A stretch of DNA of 64,000 nucleotides from a virus. Lineage: Duplodnaviria > Caudoviricetes. The notes below the pieces were generated by a model. It was not told where the DNA came from, did not search any database, and saw only the letters and a program-made list of their open reading frames with translations. The DNA lies in IMG/VR virus record IMGVR_UViG_3300025133_000020; one strand, written 5' to 3'. The position numbers and the translations under genes were made by a program. Positions 1 through 41,878 of this stretch are shown piece after piece (positions within the stretch are counted from its first letter, which is position 1; each line of letters opens with the position of its first letter).

Positions 1-733
1 TGAAGAGGACAGAGCCGATTCACTATACGTTATGACATTACCAGATGTTGATTCTGGTGGTCAAATACTAACACCAGAGGATATCTCAAGTGACCTAGAT
101 GGTATGTACGATAGCAGTTATACTGCAACGTTCTTCCCGTGGGTTCAAGTGAGTGATACTGAGAACAACGTTTACATCTGGTTACCTGCAACAAGGGACT
201 GGGTACGAAACGCAGCTTTGACTGACAATATCGCATTCCCATGGTATGCGGTTGCAGGTATTCAAAGAGGTGACGTGGCAGCTATTAAAGCGAGAACTAA
301 ACTTACTCAAACTAATAGAGACACACTATATGAAGCAAGAATCAACCCAGTAACTACCTTCGCATCAGATGGTATTAAGATTTGGGGTAACAAGACTCTT
401 CAAGTTAAGGAAACAGCACTTGATAGAATCAACGTTAGAAGATTGCTACTACAAGCAAGAAAACTTATTTCTGCTGTATCTATCAGATTGTTATTCGAGC
501 AAAACGATGACATCGTAAGGAACCAATTCCTTGGACTGGTTAATCCTATCTTGGATAACATCAGGTCAGAAAGAGGTCTTACAGACTTCCGTGTGGTATT
601 GGATGACAGCCCAGAATCTAGAGATAGAAATGAGCTTTGCGGAAGAATATTCATCAAACCAACAAGAGCACTTGAGTTTATCTGCGTTGAATTCAACGTT
701 ATGAACACTGGAGCATCGTTCGAAGATGTTTAA
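1..733 (+). CDS. Contractile tail sheath protein, C-terminal part (gene starts upstream of the window)
   Basis: The frame is open from base 2 (EEDRADSLYVMTLPD...). It carries gp18-family C-terminal motifs WYAVAGIQRG, LYEARINPV, IWGNKTLQ, ALDRINVRRLLL, LLFEQND and GRIFIKPTRALEFI. Confidence 0.93.
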   Translation, partial: EEDRADSLYVMTLPDVDSGGQILTPEDISSDLDGMYDSSYTATFFPWVQVSDTENNVYIWLPATRDWVRNAALTDNIAFPWYAVAGIQRGDVAAIKARTKLTQTNRDTLYEARINPVTTFASDGIKIWGNKTLQVKETALDRINVRRLLLQARKLISAVSIRLLFEQNDDIVRNQFLGLVNPILDNIRSERGLTDFRVVLDDSPESRDRNELCGRIFIKPTRALEFICVEFNVMNTGASFEDV

Positions 734-1792: not shown

Positions 1793-1869
1793 GTGGTTTA
1801 GAGCGAAAAACTTGAAAAACTTGACTGTAAACTATTTACTATTACATAAAATGAACTAAAATTAACTTT

Positions 1870-2229
1870 ATGGAGAGATATAAACAACTAACCCTTGAGC
1901 AAATATATGAGCGATTTGACATAGCCCATATTAGAAGACTTATCGCGTACAGTGATAAAAAGAATCCAATCAACTTGGACAACGTATCAATGCACCAACC
2001 ATTATATGAGATGATGCCAGATGAGGTAACATTAAGTGATGACGCACCAATAGATTATAAAACTAAGGTGGCGTTACTTGAAGCTCAGTTAGAAGCGGAT
2101 AGAGCTAAACGATTAAATGAAGCTCAATTTGTGGTGGCAAATACTGACGACAATAATGAAACTGTCGAAGTACCTATGAATCTGTTAAAGCAGATTATGA
2201 CAGTTTTGAATAATAACAATAAGAAATAA
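1870..2229 (+). CDS. Hypothetical protein
   Basis: 119-aa ORF with A-rich leader; tightly spaced to the next gene. Confidence 0.65.
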   Translation: MERYKQLTLEQIYERFDIAHIRRLIAYSDKKNPINLDNVSMHQPLYEMMPDEVTLSDDAPIDYKTKVALLEAQLEADRAKRLNEAQFVVANTDDNNETVEVPMNLLKQIMTVLNNNNKK

Positions 2230-4916: not shown

Positions 4917-7376
4917 ATGGCTGATGGAAGTAGAGAATTAAGAGAACATTTAGCCTTACTAAAGAAGATAGCCAAATATCAAAAAGATATGGGGTCTGGC
5001 TTCGATGGGTACTTAGATGGTATAAAGAAGCTTGGTATGCAGCAAGCTCAAATAGAACATCTATTAACCAGTCAGTACCAGCTACATGAAAAAATTATAG
5101 ACCTTGAACTTAGGAAAAGTAGAGCCACTGGAGTAGTGGCAGATGATTTACAAGACCAAATAGATGCGGCTATAGAGCTTAATGATGCTTACGAAGAGGG
5201 TATAGCCTTCGAACAACAACATTTAGACCTACTTAGGGAGAGTACTCAACAAGTAAGTTTACTTAATGTGGGTTATAAATCCATGGGTAAAGCTTGGAAT
5301 AAAATTCCAGGTCAAGCCAAGAAAATGTATGGTTGGGTTTCCAGCATGGCTGCTTTGGATATGTCCAAAGATATTAAGCAAGCCGAGCTTAGTATGGGTG
5401 TACTATCCAACCAATCCAAGTTCTTCTCTAAAACAATGTCCGATGCTTCCAAGTCCACCATTCAAATTGGTATTGGCGTATCCGACTTAGCGAAATCACA
5501 AGCTGAATACTCCGAGAGTATCGGTAGAAATATGATGCTTTCGGAAGACCAGTATCAAGCTATGGCTGAAATGGCTAAGGGTACTGTTCTGGGTGTTCAA
5601 GGTGCAGCAGAGATGGCAGCATCTATGGAAACCTTCGGGTTAAGTGTTGAAGGTTCTCGTGATATGATTCAGGAGACCGTGGATGCGGCTCAGAGTATGG
5701 GTACAAATACCTCTAAGACCATCAAAGAGCTTAGTAACGCTCTTAAATTGGCTCAGAGGTATCATTTCAAGGGTGGTATTAAAGGAATGGCTAGTATGGC
5801 TTCCTACGCAGCCAAAATGGGTATGGATATGGCTAATGTGGCTGGAATGGCTGAAAAGGTATTCAGACCAGAAGGTGCTGTTGAAATGTCAGCTAGATTG
5901 GCTACCATGGGTGGTCAAATGGCAAGACTTGGTGACCCGTTCACTTTGATGTTCAAGGCACGTAACGATTTAGAAGGCTTCATGAAAGATGTTGGGGCTG
6001 CGGCAGAAGAATTCGCTCAATTCAATGAGAAGACTGGTGAGTTCGATATTACTGGTCTACAATTAGATAGAATGCGAGAGTTAGCTGATATTACAGGACT
6101 TAGCGTTGAAGAGATGTCCAAATTAGCTAGGGAAGGTGCCAAATTCAGTAAAATAGAAAGATTAATACCAGCATCAATTGTGAGTGATGAAGATAGAGAT
6201 TTAATATCATCAATGGCTAGCTATGATGCAAAATCTAAGCAATGGGAAGTAACCATAAACGGTGACACCAAATTCCTTAGTGATTTAGACCAGACAGAAT
6301 TAGATATATATAAAAGAGACCAAGAAAGCCTTAAAGAACGAGCAAAACAAGCACAAACGTTTGATGATGCGTTTAATAATCTTGTTATGCAATTCAAGAC
6401 GGTTGGTTTACCATTCGTTGAAGCGTTGAATGAGCATTTCGTACCAGCACTAATTGAGTTCCAAAAGAAATTAATTGATGAGGGTTGGATTGATAAACTA
6501 AAGGAAGTTGCTGAAGATGTGGCGAGTTTTGTAGTAGGGGTAGGAAAAGTAGCTAAAACATTCATTGATATCTTTGGTATTAAAGGTACCGCTATAGCTC
6601 TTGGGTTAACGACAGTATTCTTCAATGCGGCTCAGTGGTACGCCAATGGTGTGGCATTAGCTAAAGGATTCAATATGGCTAGTGGTGAAGGTGGTGGATT
6701 ATTTGACATGTTTACTGGTGGTGGTAAAAAAGGTAAGAAAGGTAAAAGCAAGATACCCAAGATGGGTAAAATGGGTAAGCTGAGTAAGCTAGGTAAATTC
6801 GCAGCACCGTTAGCCCTTCTAGGTGCTGGTATGGATGGTATAACAAATGCTGGTGATGATTCATTAACTGGTGGTCAAGCTGTTGGGAAAACCTTAGACC
6901 AAAATAAATTTATGGGTATGGGTGCAGGTTTAGGCTTGCTTGGCGGTCCTTTTGCACCTCTTACTGTAGCTGGTGGTGCTGGTATTGGTGCAATAATAGA
7001 TTTAATAGCTAATAACATGTTAGGTGATGATGCGTTAATAGGTCACCACATGGGGCAATACAACATGGATGATGGTATCATCAAATTTAACCCACAAGAT
7101 AAATTCCTTCAAATGGATGATGGGATGGTTGCATCAACTGATAAAGGAAAAATTGATGACATCGCTAAGACTTCAAAAGATTCTGGTGGAAAAACTAAAG
7201 TCGAATTTGGTGATTTGAATATTAAAGGTGAAATCACTTTGAAGGATAATAACGGAAATAAGATTAATAGTAACCTACTTAAAGACCCATTCTTCATTAA
7301 AGAAATCACAAGTATGATACAACAACAGTTGAGTATAAATCTATCAGGTGGAAAATTAAATCCTAACCCTGCGTAA
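4917..7376 (+). CDS. Tape measure protein
   Basis: 819 aa, Ala/Gly/Met-rich and helical, with a hydrophobic Gly-rich segment (AAPLALLGAG...AGGAGIGAIIDL); located after tube and chaperone genes. Confidence 0.85.
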   Translation: MADGSRELREHLALLKKIAKYQKDMGSGFDGYLDGIKKLGMQQAQIEHLLTSQYQLHEKIIDLELRKSRATGVVADDLQDQIDAAIELNDAYEEGIAFEQQHLDLLRESTQQVSLLNVGYKSMGKAWNKIPGQAKKMYGWVSSMAALDMSKDIKQAELSMGVLSNQSKFFSKTMSDASKSTIQIGIGVSDLAKSQAEYSESIGRNMMLSEDQYQAMAEMAKGTVLGVQGAAEMAASMETFGLSVEGSRDMIQETVDAAQSMGTNTSKTIKELSNALKLAQRYHFKGGIKGMASMASYAAKMGMDMANVAGMAEKVFRPEGAVEMSARLATMGGQMARLGDPFTLMFKARNDLEGFMKDVGAAAEEFAQFNEKTGEFDITGLQLDRMRELADITGLSVEEMSKLAREGAKFSKIERLIPASIVSDEDRDLISSMASYDAKSKQWEVTINGDTKFLSDLDQTELDIYKRDQESLKERAKQAQTFDDAFNNLVMQFKTVGLPFVEALNEHFVPALIEFQKKLIDEGWIDKLKEVAEDVASFVVGVGKVAKTFIDIFGIKGTAIALGLTTVFFNAAQWYANGVALAKGFNMASGEGGGLFDMFTGGGKKGKKGKSKIPKMGKMGKLSKLGKFAAPLALLGAGMDGITNAGDDSLTGGQAVGKTLDQNKFMGMGAGLGLLGGPFAPLTVAGGAGIGAIIDLIANNMLGDDALIGHHMGQYNMDDGIIKFNPQDKFLQMDDGMVASTDKGKIDDIAKTSKDSGGKTKVEFGDLNIKGEITLKDNNGNKINSNLLKDPFFIKEITSMIQQQLSINLSGGKLNPNPA

Positions 7377-7398
7377 AAAAATTATTTTCTGGAAACCC

Positions 7399-7429
7399 TT
7401 GACTTTTCGAAAAAAAAGTTGTTTATTTG
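7399..7429 (+). promoter_or_regulatory. Host-type promoter candidate TTGACT-N17-TTTATTTG
   Basis: Same spacing as the TTGAmA-N17-TATATTYG promoters elsewhere in the window, with one mismatch in the -7 box. No convincing CDS follows. Confidence 0.5.
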
Positions 7430-7432
7430 TAT

Positions 7433-7595
7433 CTCATGGGGGATTATAGGGGGTTTGGTATATCCCTTCGGGACAAAACAAAAAAACAAGAAAACAAAAA
7501 ATAAGGCTGAAAGCCAAGAGCCTGAAGGCCCTAATATAATAGATTATATAACTATTATATCAAGAGTGTGGTCGGTGAGACCCTTTTTCTTATTT
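7433..7595 (+). ncRNA. Candidate structured non-coding element (ncRNA or origin-like) between tape measure and hub genes
   Basis: Several short GC hairpins (TCCC-TTC-GGGA, GGCT-GAA-AGCC, GCC-TGAA-GGC, GGTC-GGTGA-GACC then a T-rich tail) and the palindrome ATATAAT-AG-ATTATAT, downstream of a promoter-like motif. Confidence 0.3.
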
Positions 7596-7622
7596 ACTTC
7601 GTGAAAAATTCCATTAAAATAG

Positions 7623-7630
7623 TATTTATA
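7623..7630 (+). promoter_or_regulatory. TATTTATA motif upstream of ORF 7650
   Basis: Exact motif 19 nt before the ATG. Confidence 0.65.
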
Positions 7631-7649
7631 TACAAACGTATGTATTACT

Positions 7650-10600
7650 ATGGATATCAATAGCACAGCACCAAGCTTAAGAGAAATATTATTAGGTAGA
7701 AACATCATTAGCGATAGTATTACCAACAATGGGTTGGCAGCTTTGGTTGAAGGTATTAGTAGTTTAGTTTCTATTGGACACCATACGCCAAATGTTCAAC
7801 CATCAGAAGACATAGAGCTTTTAGGTGAACTATATCGGGATTTACTAATAGTGAATAATAAGCACCAAGGGTCACTTGATGACCATAGGCGAATATCTAT
7901 CATCACTTTACCAAATGATGAAACAGGAGAAGAACCATACAACCCAACTCACGCTGATTTAATTGAGGATAGTCTACTACGTGGAGACTTAAACCTTATT
8001 AACAACAAATATAGAAATGTATTGGGTGAAACCCAAATAATTGATGTCAAGTTCGTACCACAGGATATAACAACTGTTAGCGAATATGGTTCAACTTCAG
8101 GTAAGCTTGGACATGACGAAGACTCAGAGCAATACAGGAAGGATAATACTACCAAATCTAAGTACTTAGATTGGGATGCTCAATTACTCAAAGATATCAT
8201 AACCACACCAGTGGTAACAGATAAGAACCTACCCAACTATAAGACCCGTATGGAAGGTATCTTAGGTAAAGGTGATGGTTCGGTTGCTTCTGCTGCCGCC
8301 AGCGTAATGGGTAAACTATTAGGTGGTACTCAACCCAATTATTCAGTAGGTGAACCAAACCCAGTATTCGATATCCAAGGTATTCTATCCAATTCAGATA
8401 TTGATGAAACACCACTTGGTGTTAATGCTGCTGAAGGATTGAATAATGCAATCTTAGCCAACATAGGTGCCAACCTATACGAAGAAACTATTGGTAATAT
8501 AAACACCAACCCACTTAGTGTGTTGATGGGGAATGATATAATTGTTCCCAACTACAGTATAACTGTTGCCAAGGGTACATTCGGGGGGCTTTTGGACTAT
8601 TCAGAGAAAATTCTTGGGTTACAAGTACCTGTAAGTCTATTATCTCAATCATCTTCCATATTTCAATCGGAAAACCCAGTACCTAACGTTCAAAGAGCTA
8701 ATAGCTTGATTGAAAACACAGGTAAAGGTCAAATACTTAGTCTATTTGCCAATTTGAGAGCAAGTTTATTGAACTCAAATAGTGTGAAAAGTGGATATGC
8801 TCCTGGTTTTGTGGACAAACGTGACCCAAATGGTGGGATAAATCCAAATATATACGCTTTCGCAGATAATGAAGGTGGTGTTATAGACTTCCTACATGGT
8901 ACTGAAAGTAACCCAATAGCTCAATCCAACTATAATGATAAATTAGCGGCTAACTCTGGGTTTAAGGGTATAGAAAACGTTAAAAGTGAGGTATTGGATG
9001 GTACTGCTGGTCAAGTAGATTTCACTTGGTCTGACCAATACTTAGGTGTTTACACCAACACTGATTTCGAAAAGAAGAGCATCCTATGGAAAACACAAAA
9101 CCTGTTCAATCAAGCGGATAGGATGGTTAACCTTACTACTGGTAAGTATGCTAAAGCTACTCAAGGTGAAACTAACACAACGGTTGATTCTGCTGCTGGT
9201 ACTATAATTTCAAAGGGTAGTGCGGTACGTAGATTTAACGATAGATTACCTGAAACAGACCCTGACAGAATGTTCAATAGAGCTTGGACTACTTTTGATA
9301 GGTATGACAGAGTTGAGAACTTACAAAAACATGCAACATTGGATTATAAGGCTGGTGTTAACGAAAGAAGCCTAAGAGGTGAATCGGTATTAGATGATAA
9401 TGGTTTTGTTAAGATAAGTGATTATGGTGATATAGATGGTGAAGCTACTGTTGCTAACTTAAGAGGTCATATGTTTTCAATTGAAAACTTGGCTTGGGCT
9501 GATGACCTAACTAAACTAATGCCAAGTGAAATTGGTAGAGGTGATACGGTAACTGGTAAGAAAGGTAGGGTGATGTGGTTCCCACCATACGAGATGAATT
9601 TTAATGATAATACCAGCGTTAACTGGGAGTCTACAGACTTCATTGGTAGAGGGGAACCAATATACACATACAACAATACTACTAGAATCGGTACGTTACA
9701 GTTTAAGATAATAATTGACCATCCATCATACATGAATAACCTTAAAGGTGAAAGCGACCAATTGATTGATTCGTTCTTTGCTGGTGAGTTTGATGTTGAT
9801 GATAGAGTTAAAAGTAAACTAAGCGCTGATGAGATTGCTACTGTTGAAGTTAAGAGGAATCAAGAAATTGATGATGTTAACCATACACCAACAGCGACAC
9901 CTGAACCTTTTAGTGTTTTCTTCCCGTATAATTCAAATACGATACAACCAGTAAACGTTGGTTATGAGGAAGGAGCTAATTTCAACTTCGTAACTAACCC
10001 ACAGGGGATTGATGAAGGTCTGGGTACTTATACTGATATGGATGGTATAACCAGAAACGATAACACTAACTTCACCCAGAATGATATTTATTGGGAAGTT
10101 ATAGAGGACATAGGAGATAAACTAAAAGAGTGTCCCGCTTGTAAGATTACTATAACAACTTATGGTGCTACAAACGAGAACAACTTAGCCAGATTCCAAA
10201 GGGCACAAGTTATTTATAATGAAATGGTCGCATTTAACGACCCTAACGACCCTGTAAAGGAAAAACGATATGAGTTAGTGGATGGTGGAGTATTACCAGT
10301 TCAACTATTTATGGTAAACCCAAGTACGGGTATTCCATCACCTTTACCGTTGGACACTGAGTCGGTTAAAAGTAAGATAAAGGTGAGCGTTAAGTTCCAA
10401 TTCGATGCTAAATTAGCGGAAGAACTTAACCCACAAAAGAAACGAGCAATACCTCAAGCGGATTCATTATTGAATCAAGGTCTTAAAAATAGGTTCTACA
10501 ATGAACTTGGGTTTTTTAAGAAATTACAACAGGATGATAAAGTCGTGTATGATAGTATTAGTGAGAAGATTGGTTTCTTCCACCCAGCTTTCCACTCTAT

Positions 10601-21772: not shown

Positions 21773-21776
21773 ACCC

Positions 21777-22925: not shown

Positions 22926-22959
22926 GAAAAAGAGTTATTAACCGCATAATTAAAATGCG

Positions 22960-24021
22960 ATGCCTAAGTTACCACCCAAGAAGGGTGTCCGTATAGACAG
23001 AATTAATACGTTGCTAATCGATGGTAATGCCTTGTTCAAACGAGGTTACCACGGTAGCCATAACGCTTACAATAAAAATCGTGAGCATGTTGGTGGCATC
23101 TATCAATTCGTTACGGTACTTAGAATGTTACTCAAAGAGAACGTATTCCATAGAGTGTACGTTACTTGGGATGGTAGATTCAGTGGTAAATTAAGGTGGG
23201 AATTATACAAGGATTACAAGTCTGGTCGAGGTAAGAATTACATCGAAGGAACAGAGCCAGACGATGTGAACGAGAAGCTTCAACAGTTTAAAGTGAAGCA
23301 ATATCTCTATCACTTATCAATCCGACAAGTTGAAGATAAGGTAGTCGAAGCCGATGACTACATAGCTTATTATACCAACAACAAAGAAGACAATGAGGAC
23401 ATCACTATTTGCACCAGTGATAGAGACCTATGTCAACTAATTAACGAAGACGTTAAGATATGGTTATTGGATAAGAAGGAATATGTTACGCTTGAGAATT
23501 ATAACACATTCTTCGAACATCACCAAAGTAATGTAGCTTTGATAAAGCAAATAGCGGGTGATAATTCCGATAGTATTGTGGGTATTAAGAGGATTAAAGA
23601 GCCTACGTTATTAACCCACTTTCCAATGCTTAAGGAGAAGAAATGTTCGTTATTGGAAATTCTGGAAGAGGCGCTACGAATGCAAGAACTTAGAATTACT
23701 GAAAAGAAGAAGCCGTTAATCGCTCTCACCAACATATTAACTGCCACTACTGATGGTATACAAGGTGATAGGATATACGAAATTAATAGAAAATTGGTCG
23801 ACTTGACAACTCCCTTGATGACCGATTCTAGTGTTCAACATCTGTATGATGTGATTGACACACCACTAAGCACAGACCGTAACCTTAAAGAGGTTTACAA
23901 GATGCTTAAGAGAGATGGGGTTGACGATATGATTCTTGAGTATCGTATGACAGATTACTTCTTACCCTTCAAAAAACTAATAGATAGGGAAAGAAGAATG
24001 AGTAAACAACAAACAGCATGA
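22960..24021 (+). CDS. 5'-3' exonuclease / RNase H (Pol I N-terminal, FEN family)
   Basis: LLIDGNAL, VTWDG, YKSGR, VEADDYIAY, TSDRDLCQL, H3TH motif IAGDNSDSIVGIKRI. Confidence 0.9.
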   Translation: MPKLPPKKGVRIDRINTLLIDGNALFKRGYHGSHNAYNKNREHVGGIYQFVTVLRMLLKENVFHRVYVTWDGRFSGKLRWELYKDYKSGRGKNYIEGTEPDDVNEKLQQFKVKQYLYHLSIRQVEDKVVEADDYIAYYTNNKEDNEDITICTSDRDLCQLINEDVKIWLLDKKEYVTLENYNTFFEHHQSNVALIKQIAGDNSDSIVGIKRIKEPTLLTHFPMLKEKKCSLLEILEEALRMQELRITEKKKPLIALTNILTATTDGIQGDRIYEINRKLVDLTTPLMTDSSVQHLYDVIDTPLSTDRNLKEVYKMLKRDGVDDMILEYRMTDYFLPFKKLIDRERRMSKQQTA

Positions 24022-24497
24022 CAACAGAAACAAAAACTAACACGACAAGAGAAAGGGTCAATGACGACAATAGGTTCGAGTTTAATCTAACGATTAACGA
24101 TAACCTGATATGTCAAAGATTCTTCGCTATCAACTACTTCAAAAAGAAGAATATGCGTTTGGACAACGTAAAACCTTTGATGGATAGTTTGGTAGGGATG
24201 AACATCGACAAGTATGGTCGACATGGTATGATACCAACCTATCTTAGAGATAGGTCTAATGACTACCTATGGGGTAATTACCGATATTATGATGTGCAGA
24301 CTCCAGAGCAGATTGATAGGAGAAATGTATTTGAGAATGAAGATATAATAGGCTTCGAAATACGTTTTGATGATAAATTGGTTGCTAAGAGCGCTTTCAG
24401 TGGAAATTATTTCCCACCAAAGGTTCGATATAATATCGATATCAGAGGTATGATTCCTCAAATATTACATGAGATAAGGAAATCCTTCTCTCAATAG
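24018..24497 (+). CDS. Conserved phage hypothetical protein
   Basis: 159 aa with ATGA overlap; LTINDNLICQRFF and FSGNYFPPKVRYNIDIR. Confidence 0.7.
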   Translation: MTTETKTNTTRERVNDDNRFEFNLTINDNLICQRFFAINYFKKKNMRLDNVKPLMDSLVGMNIDKYGRHGMIPTYLRDRSNDYLWGNYRYYDVQTPEQIDRRNVFENEDIIGFEIRFDDKLVAKSAFSGNYFPPKVRYNIDIRGMIPQILHEIRKSFSQ

Positions 24498-24526
24498 AAT
24501 AATGGCTACTAAACAAACAACAATAG

Positions 24527-26011
24527 ATGACAAAACAGAAAGATGGGTTCAACTACCTTGGATTGGAATTCCAAGAGAGATTACTAAAACAATTCTTAGA
24601 GGATAGAAAGTTCACTGAGCGTATAGTCGATATCATCGACCCTAATTACTTCACAGATGACCACTTAAGACTTATTGCGGTTACGATTAAGAATGCTCAC
24701 GAGCAACATGAGGCTATACCTGATGTTGGTAGTTTGAAAATGCGTATCAGCGCTAAGGTGGGGAGTGAGAGTACGCAGAAGATTATAATAGGTCAGATTG
24801 ACCGTGTAGTAGGCGCCAATGAAAATGATGCTCTATTCGTTCAGGATATGGCAGTTAAGTTCTGTAAACAACAGGAGTTAGTAAAGTCGGTAAGAGATAT
24901 TCAGAAGATTATTGATAGAGGTGATTTGGAAGATTATGACCAATGTGCTGACCTTATTAGACGAGCGTTGGAAGCTGGAGATTTAACTGAGGATGATACA
25001 AATGTGTTAGATGGGTTGGCAGAAGTGTTGTCAGCAGACTACAGGAAGCCCATATCTACGGGTATACTGGGACTTGACGAGTTAATGGATGGTGGACTAT
25101 CCAGAGGTGAGTTAGGTCTTATACTGGCTCCGTTTGGCGTTGGGAAGACCACAATGATTACCAAATTGGCTTCTGCGGCTAAAGAAGGTGGTAATAACGT
25201 ACTTCAGATTATTTTTGAGGATAACCCTAAAGTAATCAAGCGTAAGCACTTATCATGTTGGACTAAGATACCACTGAACGAGTTAGCTGATGAGCAATGG
25301 CGACCAAGACTGGAAGAGGAAATTAAGAGGCAGACCGAAAGTAAGGGTACTATCTTGATTAAGAAGTTCTCAAGTGATGGTATTACCATTCCTAAGATAC
25401 GTCAATATATCAAGAAGAAGATTTCACAAGGCTTCAGACCTGATATGATATTATTGGATTACATTGATTGCGTTCAACCATCCAAGGAGTTCAAGGATGT
25501 GTATGCTGGTGAGGGTAACGTGATGAGACAATATGAAACGTTATTGAGTGATTTCGATGTTGCTGGGTGGACTGCGGTTCAAGGTAATAGAAGCTCTATC
25601 GGTGCCGAAGTAGTTGAAGCTGACCAAATGGGTGGCTCAATCAAGAAAGGACAGATAGGTCACTTCATTGTGAGTATAGCAAAAACTAATATTCAGAAAG
25701 AAACGGGCACAGCAACTATGGCAATCCTTAAATCTAGGTTTGGTAAGGATGGTATCATATTCCACGATATTACGTTTGATAACGCCACTATTCAAATTGA
25801 CGTTACTAAAAATAATAGTGGTCAGTCATTCATGCAAAATAACGTAGAAAAAGCTGCCGATGCTCAAGATAAAATCAGTGCTGTTATGACAGCCGTTAGC
25901 GATAGGAAAAGAGAAGAGGATAGAGTGAAGATGGAAGAGGATAGGGTGAAGATGAGGGCTGACGAAAATAATATTGGGGTTGACCAACCTGAGACTGAGG
26001 ACGTTACATAA
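24527..26011 (+). CDS. dnaB: Replicative DNA helicase, DnaB/gp41-like
   Basis: ISTGILGLDELMDGGL, Walker A APFGVGKT, ILLDYID, WTAVQGNR and LKSRFG. Confidence 0.93.
   Translation: MTKQKDGFNYLGLEFQERLLKQFLEDRKFTERIVDIIDPNYFTDDHLRLIAVTIKNAHEQHEAIPDVGSLKMRISAKVGSESTQKIIIGQIDRVVGANENDALFVQDMAVKFCKQQELVKSVRDIQKIIDRGDLEDYDQCADLIRRALEAGDLTEDDTNVLDGLAEVLSADYRKPISTGILGLDELMDGGLSRGELGLILAPFGVGKTTMITKLASAAKEGGNNVLQIIFEDNPKVIKRKHLSCWTKIPLNELADEQWRPRLEEEIKRQTESKGTILIKKFSSDGITIPKIRQYIKKKISQGFRPDMILLDYIDCVQPSKEFKDVYAGEGNVMRQYETLLSDFDVAGWTAVQGNRSSIGAEVVEADQMGGSIKKGQIGHFIVSIAKTNIQKETGTATMAILKSRFGKDGIIFHDITFDNATIQIDVTKNNSGQSFMQNNVEKAADAQDKISAVMTAVSDRKREEDRVKMEEDRVKMRADENNIGVDQPETEDVT
25913..25954 (+). repeat. 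21-bp tandem duplication (EEDRVKM x2) in helicase C-terminal tail
   Basis: GAAGAGGATAGAGTGAAGATG / GAAGAGGATAGGGTGAAGATG. Confidence 0.9.
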
Positions 26012-26022
26012 GATAGGAAAAT

Positions 26023-26058
26023 AATGGGGTGGTTTAATGTCGAGCCACCCTATTTATA
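26023..26058 (+). terminator. Hairpin/terminator after helicase overlapping a TATTTATA motif
   Basis: AATGGGGTGGTTT...GAGCCACCCTATT imperfect stem; its 3' arm runs into TATTTATA (26051-26058). Confidence 0.5.
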
Positions 26059-26074
26059 TTAAAGACATTCAAAA

Positions 26075-26461
26075 GTGGCACAAGGCAAATATATAAATAT
26101 CGATTATCCGTTTAAGGATAGTGACAAGGGGTTTTTACTGCAACTGAACGATACAGATTCAGGGGCGATTAAAGCTGACTTAATGCACTTAATTCTGACC
26201 CAGAAGGGTCAACGGTTATATATGCCTGATTTTGGTACTGATTTAATGAAGTATATTTTTGAACCTAACGATGCTAAAACATTATCGGAGATAAAATTGG
26301 ATATTCAACAAACTGTAAAAAAGTACATTCCCAACCTTACTGTTAACGAGGTTGAGGTCAATCAAGAAACCAATAACGAACACAAAGCTACTATAAGAAT
26401 CGATTATACAATCACCGAAGATGTCTTCGTTGAAACAGACTTTGTGGTCATAAATATTTAA
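26075..26461 (+). CDS. Baseplate wedge subunit, gp25/GpW-like
   Basis: YINIDYPF, IKADLMHLILTQKGQRLYMPDFGTDL and YIFEPND are typical gp25-family motifs; GTG start. Confidence 0.9.
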   Translation: MAQGKYINIDYPFKDSDKGFLLQLNDTDSGAIKADLMHLILTQKGQRLYMPDFGTDLMKYIFEPNDAKTLSEIKLDIQQTVKKYIPNLTVNEVEVNQETNNEHKATIRIDYTITEDVFVETDFVVINI

Positions 26462-26559
26462 GTAAAAACCCTATATCTCTTTGATATAGCTATGTCTTAT
26501 TGTTTCCACTAAGTCCATTAAATTAGAAAGTTAAAAAAGTTAAAAAAATAGAATTAAAC

Positions 26560-28566
26560 ATGGATTTATCAAGTAGTATTATGTCCGACATTACAGTGTA
26601 TATGAAGTACGCTAAATATGTACCCCACTTACAGAGAAGAGAAACTTGGGAAGAGTTGGTAACAAGAAACAAAGAAATGCACCAACGCAAGTATTCTCAC
26701 ATCGCTGACGAAATAGAAGAAGCCTACAAGCTGGTGTACGACAAGAAAGTTTTACCTTCAATGAGAAGCTTACAGTTTGGCGGCAAGCCAATCGAAATCA
26801 GTCCTAACAGGATTTATAATTGTGCGTACCTGCCAATAGACCACTGGAAAGCATTCAGTGAAACAATGTTCCTATTATTAGGCGGCACAGGAGTAGGATA
26901 CTCAGTACAACGTCATCACGTTGAACGCCTACCAGAAATAAGAAAACCTAACGCTAACAGACGAAGACGCTACCTAATCGGAGATTCGATAGAAGGATGG
27001 GCTGACGCAATCAAAATATTAATGAGAGCATACTTTGAAGGTATGTCAACTCCAGATTTTGATTTCTCAGATATACGTAAGAAAGGTGCCGCATTGGTTA
27101 CCAGTGGTGGCAAAGCGCCAGGACCGCAACCATTAAAGGATTGTGTTCACAACATCAGAAAGATTCTGGATACCAAAGAAGATGGTGACCAATTATCAAC
27201 ATTAGAGGTACATGATATTATCTGTTATATTGCTGATGCGGTATTGGCAGGTGGTATTCGTAGAGCAGCGTTGATTTCATTATTCTCAATGGATGATGAG
27301 GATATGCTTACCTGTAAATTCGGTAAGTGGTACGAGCTTAACCCACAAAGAGGTAGAGCAAATAATTCAGCAGTTATGCTTAGACATAAAATCACTGAAG
27401 ATAAGTTCTTCGATTTATGGAAGAAAGTAGAGGAAAGTGATGCTGGAGAACCAGGAGTTTACTTCTCAAACGATAAGGATTGGGGAACCAACCCATGTTG
27501 TGAAATAGGGCTAAGACCTAACCAATTCTGTAATTTGAACGAGATTAATGCTTCAAATATCACATCCCAAGCTGATTTGGAGAATAGAGTTAGAGTAGCA
27601 GCCTTCATAGGGACGTTACAAGCGGGTTACACGGACTTTCATTACTTACGTGATGTCTGGAAGCGTACAACAGAAAAGGATGCCTTAGTGGGTGTAGGAA
27701 TGACTGGTATCGGTTCAGGTGAAGTTCTTAAGTATGACTTAGCACTTGCGGCTGAGGCAGTTAAGGGAGAAAATGCTAGAGTCGCTAAGTTGATTGGTAT
27801 CAATCCAGCAGCTAGAACTACAACAGTTAAACCATCTGGAACCAGTTCATTGGTTCTTGGTACCTCTTCAGGTATTCACGCTTGGCACAATGATTATTAC
27901 ATTCGTAGAATCAGAGTAGGTAAGAATGAGTCAATTTATACGTATCTTCAGATATATCACCCAGAGTTGATTGAGGATGAGTACTTTAGACCGAACGACC
28001 AAGCTGTTATTTCTGTTCCTCAGAAAGCACCAGAGGGTTCAATCTTCCGACATGAATCACCAATGGATTTACTCAATAGAGTTAAGAAGTTCAATACTGA
28101 ATGGGTAGCTAATGGTCATATAGATGGTCAGAATACTCATAACGTATCGGTAACGGCATCCATCAAGAAAGAACCTGAGATGATTTCTGTTAAGGGTGAA
28201 GACGGTAAACCTATTAAGGGAGCCGAAGGTAAGGTTATTCTTGAACCTAAGAAGGATGAAGAGGGTAATATCATTTACAGAGTCAACGAGTGGGGCGCTG
28301 TAGGAGAATGGATGTGGGCTAACCGTGATACTTTCAATGGTATAGCAGTTCTTCCGTTCAATGGTGGAAGTTATATTCAAGCCCCTTTTGAGGACTGTAC
28401 CAAGGAAGTATACGAAGAAATGAGTAAGTCACTTCATAGTGTAGACCTTAGTAAAGTAATCGAGATTGACGACAACACAGATTTATCTGGAGAATTAGCT
28501 TGCAGTGGTGGTGGCGGTTGTGAGGTAGATATCGACATGTCTTCATTGTTAGAGGATAACTCATAG
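26560..28566 (+). CDS. nrdJ: Class II (adenosylcobalamin-dependent) ribonucleotide reductase
   Basis: VLPSMRSLQFGG, YNCAY, GGIRRAA, TNPCCEI, CNLNEI, TTVKPSGT and the C-terminal Cys pair ACSGGGGCE; no ATP cone. Confidence 0.92.
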   Translation: MDLSSSIMSDITVYMKYAKYVPHLQRRETWEELVTRNKEMHQRKYSHIADEIEEAYKLVYDKKVLPSMRSLQFGGKPIEISPNRIYNCAYLPIDHWKAFSETMFLLLGGTGVGYSVQRHHVERLPEIRKPNANRRRRYLIGDSIEGWADAIKILMRAYFEGMSTPDFDFSDIRKKGAALVTSGGKAPGPQPLKDCVHNIRKILDTKEDGDQLSTLEVHDIICYIADAVLAGGIRRAALISLFSMDDEDMLTCKFGKWYELNPQRGRANNSAVMLRHKITEDKFFDLWKKVEESDAGEPGVYFSNDKDWGTNPCCEIGLRPNQFCNLNEINASNITSQADLENRVRVAAFIGTLQAGYTDFHYLRDVWKRTTEKDALVGVGMTGIGSGEVLKYDLALAAEAVKGENARVAKLIGINPAARTTTVKPSGTSSLVLGTSSGIHAWHNDYYIRRIRVGKNESIYTYLQIYHPELIEDEYFRPNDQAVISVPQKAPEGSIFRHESPMDLLNRVKKFNTEWVANGHIDGQNTHNVSVTASIKKEPEMISVKGEDGKPIKGAEGKVILEPKKDEEGNIIYRVNEWGAVGEWMWANRDTFNGIAVLPFNGGSYIQAPFEDCTKEVYEEMSKSLHSVDLSKVIEIDDNTDLSGELACSGGGGCEVDIDMSSLLEDNS

Positions 28567-28590
28567 GGAAACCTAACAGTTAATAATGAG

Positions 28591-28619
28591 AAAGTGGTCA
28601 TCCGACCACTTTTTTTTTT
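28591..28619 (+). terminator. Rho-independent terminator after RNR
   Basis: AAAGTGGTC-ATCC-GACCACTTT plus a long T run. Confidence 0.85.
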
Positions 28620-28640
28620 GTCTTTTACTTTACTTCACAC

Positions 28641-28648
28641 TATTTATA
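28641..28648 (+). promoter_or_regulatory. TATTTATA motif upstream of HNH endonuclease 1
   Basis: Exact motif 25 nt before ORF 28674. Confidence 0.6.
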
Positions 28649-28673
28649 GTTATAATACTAAGATAAATGTGAA

Positions 28674-29510
28674 GTGATGAGTAAAAAAATAGATATGATA
28701 GATAAAAAATTTGGTAGGTTAACGGTTATTAGTGAGCATTCCAAAACTAGAAACGGGCATATACGATACGCTTGTGAATGTGAGTGTGGTAACAGTACCA
28801 ACGTATTAGGTACCCATCTTAGGCAAGGTAATACTATATCATGTGGGTGTGCTATACCTATAGGTAAAGCCAGAACTGATTGGACGGGGGTTGGTGAAAT
28901 GTCAGGCGCTTTTTGGGCTACGCATGTGGTTACTAGCGCTAGCGGTAATAAAGGTAGTAGGAGAGAATTACCATTAACGATAACAAAGGAAGATGCTTGG
29001 GATTTATTCTTAAAGCAGGGTAGAAAGTGTGCATTGAGTGGTATTGAATTGAAGTTTCCCGAAAGACATAATGATAGGTCGTGGACAGCTTCTTTGGATA
29101 GGATAGACTCGTCTGAGGGTTACATAGAAGGTAACGTTCAATGGTTACATAAGGACGTTAATATGATGAAACGCACCTACACCCAAGAACATTTTGTTAA
29201 AATGTGTGAATTGATTTCAGATAACTTAACTGACCTACCTGAAGAATCTAGCGTTAGAGGTAAATTAGTGCATCTTGCGTCAATCACGTATTTACATGGT
29301 TTAATATTTGAAAATTTCGAGGATTCGGATATGATAAAGGGTAAACTACAGAACGAATTGAATACACACTTAAATTTTGAGACTAAGATTGGTAATGTTA
29401 ATTGGGAAAATAGTATATTGAGTGGTGATATCTATTACAAACCAGTGGAAGGGGGTGAAAAATATATGGTATCAACGTTTACCGTTGTTAATACTGGGGT
29501 GATAGCGTAG
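28674..29510 (+). CDS. Free-standing His-Me/HNH-type homing endonuclease 1 with C-terminal extension
   Basis: N-terminal KFGRLTV...CECECG...LRQGNTISCGC Zn module; nuclease module CALSG...SLDRIDSSEGYIEGNVQWLHKDVNMMK; extra roughly 90-aa tail. Confidence 0.85.
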   Translation: MMSKKIDMIDKKFGRLTVISEHSKTRNGHIRYACECECGNSTNVLGTHLRQGNTISCGCAIPIGKARTDWTGVGEMSGAFWATHVVTSASGNKGSRRELPLTITKEDAWDLFLKQGRKCALSGIELKFPERHNDRSWTASLDRIDSSEGYIEGNVQWLHKDVNMMKRTYTQEHFVKMCELISDNLTDLPEESSVRGKLVHLASITYLHGLIFENFEDSDMIKGKLQNELNTHLNFETKIGNVNWENSILSGDIYYKPVEGGEKYMVSTFTVVNTGVIA

Positions 29511-29565
29511 CGGTGGGGCTTGTGAGGTAGATGTTGATATGAGTTCTTTATTGGAAGGAGAGTAA
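29509..29565 (+). pseudogene. Orphan duplicate of the RNR C-terminus (SGGACEVDVDMSSLLEGE*)
   Basis: Translates to a near copy of the RNR ending SGGGGCEVDIDMSSLLEDNS*; no start codon; overlaps the endonuclease stop. Confidence 0.85.
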
Positions 29566-29585
29566 ATATAGTATCATATTAAGTG

Positions 29586-29612
29586 AAAGGTGGGCTTGTC
29601 CCACCTTTTTTT
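29586..29612 (+). terminator. Rho-independent terminator after the RNR remnant
   Basis: AAAGGTGGG-CTTGT-CCCACCTTT plus TTTT. Confidence 0.85.
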
Positions 29613-29654
29613 GTGTTCTAACTATTTAGTTTTCGTAAATAATGTGTTAATTGA

Positions 29655-29661
29655 TATTTAT
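29655..29661 (+). promoter_or_regulatory. TATTTAT motif upstream of baseplate wedge gene
   Basis: GATATTTATT 18 nt before the ATG. Confidence 0.6.
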
Positions 29662-29679
29662 TACTAAGAACGAAAAACT

Positions 29680-31500
29680 ATGGCTCGAAAAATACCTTAT
29701 TTTGCCCGAAACTTTGCCGACATTAGAACCGAACTGGTTAATTATGTTAGGCAATACTACCCAGATATATTCAATGACTTCAACGATGCGTCCGTTGGTA
29801 TGATGCTACTGGAATTGAACGCTGCTACTGGTGACATGTTATCATTTCACACGGACAGAATGTTCCAAGAAACTCAAATTAATTACGCACAAGAACGGTC
29901 AAGCGTATTATCAATGGCTCGTACATTCGGGCTTAAAATTCCAGGTAAAAGACCATCAGTAAGTATAGTAGATTTCAGTGTAACCGTTCCAGTATTGGGT
30001 GATACGTGGGATATTAGTTACGCACCAGTAATTAGAGAAGGGGCACAAGTATCTGGCGCTGGAAAGGTATTCGAAACCTCAGATGATATAGATTTCTCAT
30101 CTCCGTTTGCATCAGGTGGTATACCAAATAGGTTAATTATACCTAATTTGGATAGTTCAAACAATATAGTTAATTACACCATAACCAAACGAGAGATGGT
30201 TATTAATGGTGTGACTAAGATATTCAAACGAGTGATGACGGAAAATGATGTAAGACCTTTCTTCGAATTATTACTACCTGAGACAAACGTTATATCTATT
30301 AATTCGATTGTTACACTTGAAGGAACCGATTTTACTACCACACCTACCATTGACCAATTTTTGGATAGTGAGTTAAGGTGGTTTGAAATGAACGCACTGG
30401 CAGAAGATAAGGTTTTTGTTAAAGATAATACACTTACCAGCGATAACACTTCAGTTGAGGTTGGTAGATGGGTTAAGGTAGACCAGCGATTTATTCGTGA
30501 GTATACCGATAATGGTTTTACAAAATTGATTTTCGGTGGTGGTTCCCAAGATATAGGGTCATTATGTGATTTCGATGTTGACGCAGCGTTGGTAAGTAGA
30601 ATCGGGGACTTCATTAATAATCTAAGTATGGGTACAACACCAAGCCCAAGCACTACTATGTTCGTAAGTTATAGAGTTGGTGGTGGTGCCGATACAAACA
30701 TAGGACCTAACGTTCTAACTACAGTTAATAATGTTAATATGTCCGTAAATGGGGTCGACTCAACTATAAATCAAGCGGTTAGAGGTTCATTGGAAGTTAA
30801 TAACCCACTACCAGCTTTAGGTGGTAAAGACGAACCATCAGTAGAAGAGATACGTAACTTAACACGTTACAATTTCGCTTCACAGGAGAGATGTGTAACA
30901 ATCAAGGACTACCAATCAAGAATTGCCTTGATGGATGGTGAGTTCGGGGTACCGTTCAGAACAGGTGTATTGGAAAATCAGAATAAGGTTGCGATTTATA
31001 TACTATCATTAGGTAGTGATGGGACGTTGACTAATCAGTCCACTAGCACGTTAAGACGTAATATAGCCACTTATTTGAGTGATTATAGGATGATGAATGA
31101 TTATGTGGAAGTAACTAACGGTCAAGTCATTAACTTAGCATTCGAATTGGGGTTATACATAGACAAGGAGTTCCCCCAAAGTCAAATCATAGCGGAATCC
31201 ATTAGTCAAATACAAAATTATTTTGATATCGATAATTGGGATATGGGTCAGAACATCTACATGAGTCAACTGATTGAGAATATCAATAATGTTGGTGGTG
31301 TATTAAACGTTATGGAGTTGAAAGTTTTCAATAAGGTGGGTGATGGATATTCCTTGAATCAAATAGCTCAACCATTATTGGATGAAGCCACAAAAGAGAT
31401 TGATTTGGCGCCTAACTACGCATTAATGGGTAGCCCTATAAGTATGTTTGAGATTAAGAGACCTAGCGTGGATATTCGCGTCCGTGTCAAGACTAATTAA
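29680..31500 (+). CDS. Baseplate wedge protein (T4 gp6 / baseplate J-like)
   Basis: YFARNFADIRTEL, FNDASVGMMLLELNA, SYRVGGG, GGKDEPSVEEIR, FASQERCVTIKDY and NVGGVLNV. Confidence 0.9.
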   Translation: MARKIPYFARNFADIRTELVNYVRQYYPDIFNDFNDASVGMMLLELNAATGDMLSFHTDRMFQETQINYAQERSSVLSMARTFGLKIPGKRPSVSIVDFSVTVPVLGDTWDISYAPVIREGAQVSGAGKVFETSDDIDFSSPFASGGIPNRLIIPNLDSSNNIVNYTITKREMVINGVTKIFKRVMTENDVRPFFELLLPETNVISINSIVTLEGTDFTTTPTIDQFLDSELRWFEMNALAEDKVFVKDNTLTSDNTSVEVGRWVKVDQRFIREYTDNGFTKLIFGGGSQDIGSLCDFDVDAALVSRIGDFINNLSMGTTPSPSTTMFVSYRVGGGADTNIGPNVLTTVNNVNMSVNGVDSTINQAVRGSLEVNNPLPALGGKDEPSVEEIRNLTRYNFASQERCVTIKDYQSRIALMDGEFGVPFRTGVLENQNKVAIYILSLGSDGTLTNQSTSTLRRNIATYLSDYRMMNDYVEVTNGQVINLAFELGLYIDKEFPQSQIIAESISQIQNYFDIDNWDMGQNIYMSQLIENINNVGGVLNVMELKVFNKVGDGYSLNQIAQPLLDEATKEIDLAPNYALMGSPISMFEIKRPSVDIRVRVKTN

Positions 31501-32436
31501 ATCAAACATTAATGTTGTTTTTAGTGATAACCACCTATTTATGATAAACGAATGACGATGAATTGTATTAAATGTGGTGGTAAGGTAACGAAGTTTGGTA
31601 AAATAAATAAGAGGCAGAGGTATCGATGTGGTAATTGTGATATTACGTTTACCGATACCTCTTTGATTAAAATTAAGGAGCGAAAGCTTAAATATGAAAA
31701 AATTGTAGATATGTATACCATAAGTGGTATGTCAACAACTGAAATAGGTAAGGTGTTAGGTACTTCATCTACGGTACCACAAAGAATATTAAAAGGTATG
31801 GGTATTACTAGAACTATAAGTGAAGCTAAGAAGGGTAAGTTAAGGGGTACTTCATTACCCACAGATAAAATAATAAGATTGTATTGCGAGGGTACTCCAA
31901 CAACAAAAATAGCTAAAGATTTGGGTTATTCGAAGACTTCTATTTTAAAAGTGCTCATGAGTAATAATATACCTAGAGATAACGAGTATGAATATCACCA
32001 CCCATATGATGACACTATAAAATGGTTATACATAGAAGGTAGCTCAATGTTAGAGGTGTCAAAACTACTTAAAATACCATACACCACCATTAATACTAGA
32101 TTACATAAGTTTGGTTTGGTTAGAACTGATGATAGATTTAGGATTGGTATGGATTACGATACTTATTTGGAAAATCTACCAGCTTATGATAAATATCGTA
32201 GTGATGTTAATAAGGTAACGAATGAGCAACCTATAGAGATATTAGATAATTGTGGTAAGCGTGGGTTATGCGGTGTGGATGGTGCATACCAATTAGACCA
32301 TAAGTTTTCTATCTTAGAAGGCTTTAAACAAGGTGTCGAACCAGAAGTTATTGGTAATATAGCTAATTTGGAGTTTATACCTTGGGAAGATAATCTTAGT
32401 AAGGGTGGCGACTGTTCCATCACTTTAGAAGAATTG
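31501..32436 (+). mobile_element. Homing-endonuclease cassette at the 3' end of the baseplate wedge gene
   Basis: Flanked by two synonymously different copies of R-V-K-T-N-stop (31483-31500 and 32437-32454). Confidence 0.68.
31536..31542 (+). promoter_or_regulatory. TATTTAT motif upstream of HNH endonuclease 2
   Basis: CCTATTTATG 9 nt before the ATG. Confidence 0.55.
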
Positions 32437-32454
32437 AGAGTTAAAACCAATTAA
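31552..32454 (+). CDS. Free-standing HNH homing endonuclease 2 (Zn ribbon + 3 HTH repeats + HNH)
   Basis: CIKC...QRYRCGNC Zn ribbon; three LY..G.S..EI helix-turn-helix repeats; YQLDHKFS...NLEFIPWEDNLSK nuclease; ends RVKTN*. Confidence 0.85.
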   Translation: MTMNCIKCGGKVTKFGKINKRQRYRCGNCDITFTDTSLIKIKERKLKYEKIVDMYTISGMSTTEIGKVLGTSSTVPQRILKGMGITRTISEAKKGKLRGTSLPTDKIIRLYCEGTPTTKIAKDLGYSKTSILKVLMSNNIPRDNEYEYHHPYDDTIKWLYIEGSSMLEVSKLLKIPYTTINTRLHKFGLVRTDDRFRIGMDYDTYLENLPAYDKYRSDVNKVTNEQPIEILDNCGKRGLCGVDGAYQLDHKFSILEGFKQGVEPEVIGNIANLEFIPWEDNLSKGGDCSITLEELRVKTN

Positions 32455-41221: not shown

Positions 41222-41878
41222 ATGCCTAAGAAATACAACCATAACGAGGAAGAAATCTGTAAGTTATACTTGGATGGGTTTAGTTTGCAAAAGATTGCGG
41301 ATAAATTCGATGTAAGTAAGATGCCGATACGTACAATAGTGAGTAATCATGGTATCCTTAGAGGTGGTACGAGTAATGGACAGAAGATAATCCTAACCAA
41401 AGAACAGGAAACTCGGATAAAATATTTATACTTAAATGAGTATTGTAGTGGTACGGAGATAGCTTCTAAAATGGGGTTAACTGCACCATTCGTTGATAAA
41501 TATTTGAGTGGTATTGACTATAGAAGAACTAAAGGTGAGGGTGCTTCTATAGGTTTGGTGAAAAGATATAGAGGGGTTAGATATGATGTATATTTAAACT
41601 CAGTAGATGAATATAAGCGATATAAATCTGACGTGTTGAAGGTGACTAATAAACAACCTATCGAAACTTTAGATAATTATAGTAAGCGGGGTGTTAGTGG
41701 GTTAGATGGTGCATATCATTTAGACCATAAATATTCCATATTGGAAGGGTTTAAGCAAGGTATTAACCCAGACATAATTGGTAACATAATTAATTTAGAA
41801 TTCATACCATGGGAAGACAACGTAAAGAAACGGGTCACATGTAGTATTTCTAAAACAGAACTTTTAAACTTAAACTAA
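41222..41878 (+). CDS. Free-standing HNH homing endonuclease 3 (2 HTH repeats + HNH), paralog of endonuclease 2
   Basis: C-terminal ~95 aa align closely with ORF 31552 (YHLDHKYSILEGFKQG...NLEFIPWEDN). Confidence 0.85.
   Translation: MPKKYNHNEEEICKLYLDGFSLQKIADKFDVSKMPIRTIVSNHGILRGGTSNGQKIILTKEQETRIKYLYLNEYCSGTEIASKMGLTAPFVDKYLSGIDYRRTKGEGASIGLVKRYRGVRYDVYLNSVDEYKRYKSDVLKVTNKQPIETLDNYSKRGVSGLDGAYHLDHKYSILEGFKQGINPDIIGNIINLEFIPWEDNVKKRVTCSISKTELLNLN

Follow-up and report, generated by a model that had tools for sequence, protein, structure and literature searches.

A probable HNH-type homing endonuclease cassette with a replacement gene end in a phage class II ribonucleotide reductase gene

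Endonuclease genes that bring along a substitute end for the gene they enter are known from fungal mitochondria. In an account of these systems (PMC3630166, citing Paquin et al. 1994), so-called mORFs carrying the C-terminus of a foreign gene are reported for atp6 of Allomyces macrogynus and for atp6, atp9, cox2 and nad3 of Glomus sp., and the endonuclease of the Allomyces element was shown biochemically to drive mobility. Here we describe a locus of comparable design in a 64,000-nucleotide stretch of tailed-phage DNA (IMG/VR record IMGVR_UViG_3300025133_000020, hereafter the window). The window encodes a class II (B12-type) ribonucleotide reductase (RNR). Near the 3′ end of its gene, the codons of the two redox cysteines are very probably separated by an inserted cassette of about 1 kb, which carries a free-standing homing endonuclease gene of the HNH type together with a replacement tail. 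The principle is known from the mitochondrial mORFs; the nuclease family, the phage host, the class II RNR redox pair as target and the frequent in-frame reading of the nuclease into the native tail are new details.

The likeness extends to several features of the window. An endonuclease open reading frame (ORF) lies in the 3′ part of an essential gene, and an in-phase inserted C-terminal piece completes that gene; the native C-terminus is stranded downstream, is nearer to the relatives than the inserted one is, and differs from it largely by synonymous changes; and the ORF is sometimes in phase with the host gene, as in the family studied here (PMC3630166). In the phage, the inserted end completes the RNR in phase, and the stranded native end is the more relative-like one, as seen with the closest relative (L001), with a filled and an empty genome of another RNR lineage (L149 and L151), and in a second cassette of the window. 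Family and host differ, the window cassette being HNH-like and carried by a tailed phage, whereas the mORFs encode LAGLIDADG or GIY-YIG enzymes and reside in organelles. Unlike in the mORFs, moreover, only about 20 codons are replaced, starting inside the redox cysteine pair; the cassette is equipped with a terminator and a promoter-like site of its own; and many members of its nuclease family run on into the native tail and end at the stop codon of that tail.

The free-standing endonuclease genes of T4-like phages are, as far as is known, intergenic and cut the neighbouring gene at a distance, and we know of no duplicated, recoded gene end described for them. A homing endonuclease gene inside essential coding sequence, with no intron or intein and with function kept, is common to the window, the T4 mobA/gene 60 cassette and mobE/nrdA of Aeromonas phage Aeh1; function is maintained by ribosomal bypass in T4 gene 60, by two assembled polypeptides in Aeh1 and by a substitute gene end in the window. 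In Aeh1, insertion of mobE splits nrdA into two genes (PMC3653736). The T4-like free-standing enzymes SegF, SegG and MobE (“intronless homing”; PMC2988022, PMC2790892) resemble the window nuclease in that their genes are patchily distributed and are found within or next to a conserved essential gene, in many cases one for RNR. Such endonucleases are presumed to spread by cutting the empty allele, with gene conversion and co-conversion of the flanks. Phage homing endonuclease genes near RNR genes are well known (PMC3653736, PMC10448857). Those of ICP1-like and other phages share with the window the association with RNR, a position at the boundaries of exchanged segments and a CapR-type domain, which is matched weakly here; the study in question concerns T5orf172 and AP2-associated HNH families and does not describe replacement gene ends (PMC10448857). 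More generally, a search of an incomplete literature collection yielded no account of phage homing endonuclease genes that supply a substitute gene end, an absence that is not proof.

The RNR gene end and its empty alleles

Class II RNRs carry a C-terminal cysteine pair on a flexible tail that re-reduces the active site, as established for the L. leichmannii enzyme. The window RNR (26560..28566, + strand, 668 amino acids, intact) matches the Pfam models PF02867 (33.4 bits, cut-off 23.9) and PF21995 (29.3 bits, cut-off 27) as well as phrog_367 (E = 1.9e-114), and the presence of the RNR barrel and the B12-type insertion domain on a single polypeptide identifies it as NrdJ. The cysteine pair is present in this enzyme, with C-x5-C spacing, and in all relatives read, mostly with C-x4-C spacing. 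At its 3′ end the ORF reads ...ELACSGGGGCEVDIDMSSLLEDNS*. The last codon that clearly belongs to the native body is that of the first cysteine (TGC, 28501..28503, + strand); the final 20 codons form the replacement tail, SGGGGCEVDIDMSSLLEDNS* (28504..28566, + strand), which has one glycine codon more than the usual C-x4-C. The reading frame is unbroken through this tail to the stop codon, includes the second cysteine and aligns with relatives to the end. Because the frame continues from the native body into this probably imported tail, a complete enzyme is still encoded.

The RNR stop codon is followed on the same strand by an intrinsic-terminator-like hairpin with a T-run (28588-28619, −15.7 kcal/mol, z = −4.8), which is absent from the empty allele described below, by a promoter-like site, TTTACT-16-TATAAT (28629-28656), which holds CTATTTATA at 28640-28648, and by the endonuclease gene (28677..29510; 277 amino acids from ATG, with a GTG at 28674 as alternative start). 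The endonuclease stop codon TAG (29508-29510) overlaps, in a different frame, the AGC (29509-29511) that opens a second tail, SGGACEVDVDMSSLLEGE* (29509..29565, + strand). Downstream of it lies a second, native terminator (29585-29609, annotated as 29585..29615, + strand, −14.2 kcal/mol, z = −3.6). Altogether, four terminator-like sites were found in the 1.5-kb locus against 0.5 expected. A first-pass annotation of this DNA had listed the same succession of RNR end, terminator, motif, endonuclease, overlapping second tail and second terminator, and every element of it was recovered in place. The downstream tail does not include the codon of the first cysteine, and two stop codons just 5′ in its own frame place it outside any long ORF; it is therefore a fragment and not a gene. 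We are confident, short of certainty, that the inserted cassette comprises a replacement gene end (second cysteine, tail and stop codon), a terminator, a promoter-like spacer and the endonuclease gene, and the native tail with its terminator would have been pushed downstream as an untranslated remnant. The nuclease gene is not housed in an intron or intein: the RNR stop codon and terminator precede the nuclease ORF, and no intron-like RNA family matched 28200..29800 at E values up to 1.

With one glycine codon removed, the two tails align over 18 codons, of which 14 encode identical residues, and 16 of 54 bases differ. Eight codons show silent differences only and four change the residue. The two copies had been said to differ at most synonymous positions; this holds for eight of the 14 conserved residues, which are spelled by another codon, but not for a 12-base core, TGTGAGGTAGAT, that is the same in both. 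A 29-base probe of the downstream tail has no further match in the window (0 in 100 shuffles). The 16 changes were also placed randomly on the upstream copy in 20,000 trials, in which outcomes with at most four replacement codons were counted; 10.2 replacement codons are expected by random placement, compared with the four seen (P = 5e-5). The silent bias suggests, therefore, that most of the divergence accrued under constraint on the protein sequence of both copies, a pattern that fits a pair of functional tails evolving in different genomes better than a local duplicate with one decaying copy.

An empty allele is provided by L001, the closest relative among 80 viral contigs with related RNR genes (RNR 91% identical in protein over 665 amino acids and about 80% in DNA, gene order kept). 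L001 has no endonuclease and only one tail, with C-x4-C spacing (ACGGGACEVDVD...). Its RNR ends in ...ACGGGACEVDVDITELLK*, followed by a hairpin identical to the second terminator of the window, the same intergenic region and the baseplate-wedge gene. In BLASTN, positions 384-5976 of L001 correspond to window 22934-28538 and positions 5948-7935 to window 29512-31500. The 29-base overlap of the two matches is the duplicated tail, and apart from window 28539..29511 the two genomes are colinear. The stranded tail and its terminator are thus colinear with the single tail of L001. A distant endonuclease-free relative, P0123 on L229, ends in ...ELACSGGACEVDVDM..., which equals the stranded copy over 11 residues, and the motif ACEVDVD together with C-x4-C spacing is common to the stranded tail, L001 and P0123. 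These comparisons bear out the earlier view of the downstream copy as the stranded original end. The empty allele predicted along with it was found in part: L001 has one tail directly before the second terminator, but the exact ending ...MSSLLEGE* was not found. Among 80 viral contigs with related RNR genes, two tails occur in the window alone, so that the observation named in advance as contradicting an insertion, relatives without the endonuclease that carry both tails, was made in 0/80 cases. On L229, the last 129 RNR codons are called as a separate gene (226..615), and the RNR may be interrupted further upstream.

Assembled contigs of marine metagenome runs from different studies, X1 and X2, were aligned to 27000..31000 of the window; X1 probably gave rise to the window and X2 did not. 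In each of the two runs, one contig matches 28306-28513 and 29584-29728 (about 88-91% identity) and has no more than 64 further bases between these two segments. Contigs with the filled form, identical to the window, are present alongside it, which shows that the filled phage and a relative without the endonuclease occur together. When RNR C-terminal fragments were searched for the tail of the bridged variant, the best match reached only 76% identity. Presence/absence polymorphism at a fixed site is accordingly seen between the window (filled) and L001 (empty), between L149 (filled) and L151 (empty), and in the bridging contigs of X1 and X2. In GenBank phages, only short and weak DNA matches to the window were obtained.

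Recurrence in other RNR lineages and in a second gene

A search of 5.8 billion proteins yielded 1200 nuclease homologues at E ≤1e-20. A class II RNR lies immediately upstream of the homologous nuclease in 34 of 67 viral loci, with identities to the window RNR that range from 25 to 79%, and among the 120 closest homologues there are 31 whose reading frame terminates within an RNR tail of the GGxCE(I/V) type, in phase with it. The closest long-form homologue is found in L081 and L082 (56% identical overall, 75% in the core). The RNR of L081 (665..2893, 743 amino acids) is only 36% identical to that of the window and occupies the same position, with neighbouring genes that are 76-78% identical; the whole RNR gene appears to have been swapped beside the homing endonuclease. 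The anatomy of the L081 locus is like that of the window: the RNR ends in ...ACSGGSCELTSL*, and the nuclease stop codon TAG overlaps a remnant, SGGQCEITSL*. Two parts of the cassettes can be aligned with each other, namely the 3′ end of the nuclease gene and the spacer, which holds the promoter-like CACACTATTTA...TATAAT and in which the stretch corresponding to window 28629-28656 is conserved in L081; the tails are lineage-specific.

A very different RNR lineage is represented by L149 (filled) and L151 (empty), whose flanks are 90-95% identical. The empty allele of L151 reads Cys1-Val-Gly-Gly-Ser-Cys2-EIVDLT*. In L149, an insert of about 532 nucleotides follows Cys1-Val-Gly and consists of a re-spelled NCEVVDLT* and a nuclease ORF, the TTG start of which overlaps the stop codon of the re-spelled end. 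This ORF reads in frame into the native GGSCEIVDLT* and ends on its stop codon. Compared with the native tail of L151, the L149 remnant agrees at 35/37 positions, and the L149 replacement tail is heavily re-spelled. In the same lineage, 77 endonuclease-free alleles end in ...CEIVDLT* like the remnants, and the replacement tails vary, often with altered spacing of the two cysteines. The C-x4-C spacing is present in 104/112 distinct endonuclease-free alleles versus 14/21 endonuclease-bearing ones, a comparison of kin loci, unevenly collected, that is to be read as a hint only. In both lineages the codons of the cysteine pair are the best conserved DNA of the RNR 3′ region. That the element had entered at a conserved cysteine-pair site, as proposed from the window alone, is supported by this recurrence of the junction between the two cysteine codons.

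The nuclease and the RNR do not share one history. L081 shares 75% identity with the window in the nuclease core compared with 32% in the RNR end, and the reverse applies to L110 and L115. The phylogenies of nuclease and RNR are strongly decoupled, as would be expected of horizontal movement of the nuclease gene. The nearest nuclease homologues in isolated phages are less than 40% identical and do not lie behind a class II RNR; in Rhodococcus phage Trina, an RNR of another kind is preceded by the gene of a related nuclease. In L110, a stranded RNR tail (GGACEVDVDIKALSNSSRETV*, 1803..1883) is located about 440 nucleotides 3′ of the nuclease stop codon, past further short ORFs, an arrangement suggestive of an insertion that is either older or compound.

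The window itself contains another cassette built in the same way (31483..32454, + strand), no part of which is present in L001. Here it is the baseplate-wedge gene (29680..31500) that ends in RVKTN* (31483..31500). It is followed by an ORF (31552..32454, 300 amino acids) with endonuclease-like and helix-turn-helix matches, the in-frame end of which is again RVKTN* (32437..32454), with four of the five codons re-spelled. The downstream RVKTN* and the DNA behind it are nearly identical to L001, and the upstream RVKTN* and spacer are common to the window and the filled L081. As the upstream end matches a filled genome and the downstream end an empty one, the comparison settles, at least for this cassette, that the downstream end is the native one and that the replacement end travels with the nuclease. 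The silent bias of the tail differences in the RNR gene and the second cassette together favour a foreign origin of the RNR replacement tail, in line with the first-pass claim that a replacement end was brought in. Pattern searches of viral and metagenome contigs found no donor for this tail. A third endonuclease-like ORF (41222..41878) is 42% identical to the ORF of the second cassette over 206 residues, and no duplicated end of its upstream neighbour was seen.

The nuclease and the weighing of alternatives

The nuclease consists of an N-terminal Cys-rich, DNA-binding-like module, an HNH-like region (residues ~66-188) and a sheath/gp25-like C-terminal domain (~187-278). Residues 88-187 match phrog_3322, phrog_374 and phrog_1035 (annotated as endonuclease, HNH endonuclease and endonuclease VII) at E values of 1e-15 to 1e-21, and the N-terminal module has a weak match to the Pfam CapR homology domain (E = 0.0055, below the cut-off). 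In an AF2 model built on the homologue alignment (mean pLDDT 82.7), residues 66-188 are similar in fold to two HNH enzymes, PacI (Foldseek probability 0.95; VIA Z 7.0, 113 residues aligned) and the nicking enzyme Gme (Z 4.9). The family shares an invariant motif, S-L-D-R-I-D...G-Y...N-V-Q-W...N..K, with a near-invariant H-K-D before the last Asn. The model and the profile matches are consistent with an HNH-like protein with putative nuclease activity.

By analogy with the fungal mORFs and with T4 intronless homing, a route of spread can be proposed. During co-infection, the nuclease would cut the conserved coding sequence of the cysteine pair in an empty allele, and recombinational repair from the filled genome would copy the cassette into it, with the RNR body serving as left homology arm and the stranded tail with its terminator as right arm. 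The filled allele would be spared because its target is split and its replacement tail is re-spelled and one glycine codon longer. In this scheme we infer that the nuclease is active, where exactly it cuts, that the recoded tail is immune and from where it was donated. Regarding a co-conversion tract, the identity between the window and L001, taken in sliding steps over the RNR, showed no clear drop before 28493, a comparison of low power at about 80-85% identity. If the scheme applies, a selfish nuclease can settle, without cost to its host, in just those codons of an essential phage enzyme that are most conserved and most critical to function. This would explain why such conserved sites attract mobile elements even without introns or inteins. 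The family is large, with more than 1000 homologues at E ≤1e-20 in public metagenomes, and its natural target, the cysteine-pair coding sequence of class II RNRs, would be predictable; matched filled and empty alleles exist. For annotation, the locus is a warning that short “orphan” gene ends and odd nuclease C-termini can be insertion scars. RNR is moreover a marker gene for viral diversity, and RNR 3′ ends may therefore be chimeric.

A number of observations weigh against an active homing cassette with an imported gene end, and some of them concern the protein. No Pfam HNH model matches the nuclease, a profile of 31 nuclease homologues found no match among PDB sequences, and the fold matches are middling (Z 5-7). 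The motif has Arg at the position of the usual first His of HNH enzymes, so that catalysis is not assured. The missing Pfam match and this Arg in place of the usual catalytic His are compatible with a domesticated nuclease, which would have arrived as described and no longer homes, serving the phage instead, for example in competitor exclusion or regulation, with the stranded tail as an inert relic. The intact ORF, the phage-type promoter motif and the additional folded C-terminal domain can be read in the same sense. Such domestication nevertheless appears improbable. The nuclease is patchy in close relatives, with filled and empty forms in the same samples; the Arg is invariant throughout a whole family that is evidently mobile; and the phylogenies of nuclease and RNR are strongly incongruent.

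The remaining difficulties concern the tails and the site of insertion. A degenerate DNA pattern for GGACEVDVDMSSLLE had no match in the viral contigs, leaving the exact empty allele and the donor unfound, and the looser pattern CEVD(V/I)DMSSLLE had none in the metagenome contigs. The closest empty alleles are just 80-91% identical in DNA, which fixes the left border of the insert only within the shared AGYGGTGG. Several endonuclease-bearing alleles keep the canonical loop of the cysteine pair, and the link between loop change and immunity is therefore loose. Moreover, the replacement tail of L081 is nearer to its own remnant than to the replacement tail of the window, so that in moving between RNR lineages the nuclease does not carry along one and the same tail. 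The main rival to an imported tail is accordingly a local duplication, in which irregular repair at the entry of the endonuclease copied the gene end of the recipient itself and the upstream copy was re-spelled in place, under selection against self-cleavage and repeat recombination, no foreign tail being involved. It is kept alive by the MSSLLE extension, which is common to both tails of the window and was seen in no other contig, and by the search for a donor, which found none; judged by this locus alone, the duplicate may therefore have a local origin. The replacement tail and remnant of L081 are likewise of one type, and short identical stretches flank the inserts (AGYGGTGG in the window, AGTGGCGG in L081 and TTGG in L149). 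A remnant would, however, have been free of selection since the insertion, yet the tail differences are mainly silent. The replacement end and spacer of the second cassette are common to two filled genomes and unlike the native end, and the replacement tail of L149 is far more diverged than the flanks, which are 90-95% identical. Taken together, we rate a local duplication as unlikely, slightly more so than domestication. A mere recombination scar, with a downstream tail left by a second RNR gene or by an RNR swap between phages and an ordinary intergenic free-standing endonuclease gene in between, could draw on the exchange of RNR genes within the group (in L081 the neighbours are the same and the RNR is only 36% identical) and on the many homologous nucleases that follow an RNR without any remnant, but is very improbable given that remnants, which are known from three or more RNR lineages and in many cases continue the nuclease reading frame, always begin between the two cysteine codons, and that the empty allele is colinear with remnant and terminator and no other piece of RNR is present.

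Insertion of a cassette with a replacement gene end may have consequences for the nuclease itself. In the model, residues 187-278 resemble gp25-like proteins, TssE and several C-terminal domains of tail sheaths (Z 5-8), with a Foldseek probability of 0.99 for T4 gp25. The domain (29232..29507) is also colinear with the last ~90 residues of the phage's own sheath (2..733), at 25% identity and a pairwise E of 0.002; it has no sequence similarity to the neighbouring gp25-like gene. It may be the end of a sheath gene, captured at an earlier insertion site. A wider reading, which we put forward tentatively and at somewhat less than even chance, is that gene-end replacement is a common, so far undescribed way in which phage homing endonucleases enter coding sequence free of introns and inteins. 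Nucleases that read into stranded ends would then gain new C-terminal pieces upon moving, the sheath/gp25-like domain being a captured tail-sheath 3′ end and the RNR tails of the short relatives the same process caught early. If so, these nucleases would hold a readable record of the genes they once occupied and would be a source of mosaic phage gene ends.

Promoter-like motif and neighbouring genes

Copies of CTATTTATA are located at 21776, 26050, 28640 and 51462, 25-37 nucleotides before four ORF starts and on the coding strand, which is suggestive of a candidate phage promoter motif. A related CTATTTAGT precedes the baseplate-wedge gene, at 29622. The broader CTATTTAKW was rejected as a promoter motif because its overall enrichment is not significant (9 found against 5.8 expected); only the four pre-ORF copies of CTATTTATA are suggestive. 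The window is part of a 130-kb contig according to the gene-calling record. Its long ORFs all lie on the same strand, its GC content is about 38%, and its genes include a tail sheath, baseplate proteins and a DnaB-like helicase, as in a tailed phage. Gene order varies within the group: a gp25-like baseplate gene (26075..26461) is located upstream of the RNR in the window and likewise in L001 and L081, but almost all of the other relatives (L002-L080) have it downstream, between the RNR, or RNR and nuclease, and the gp6-like gene.

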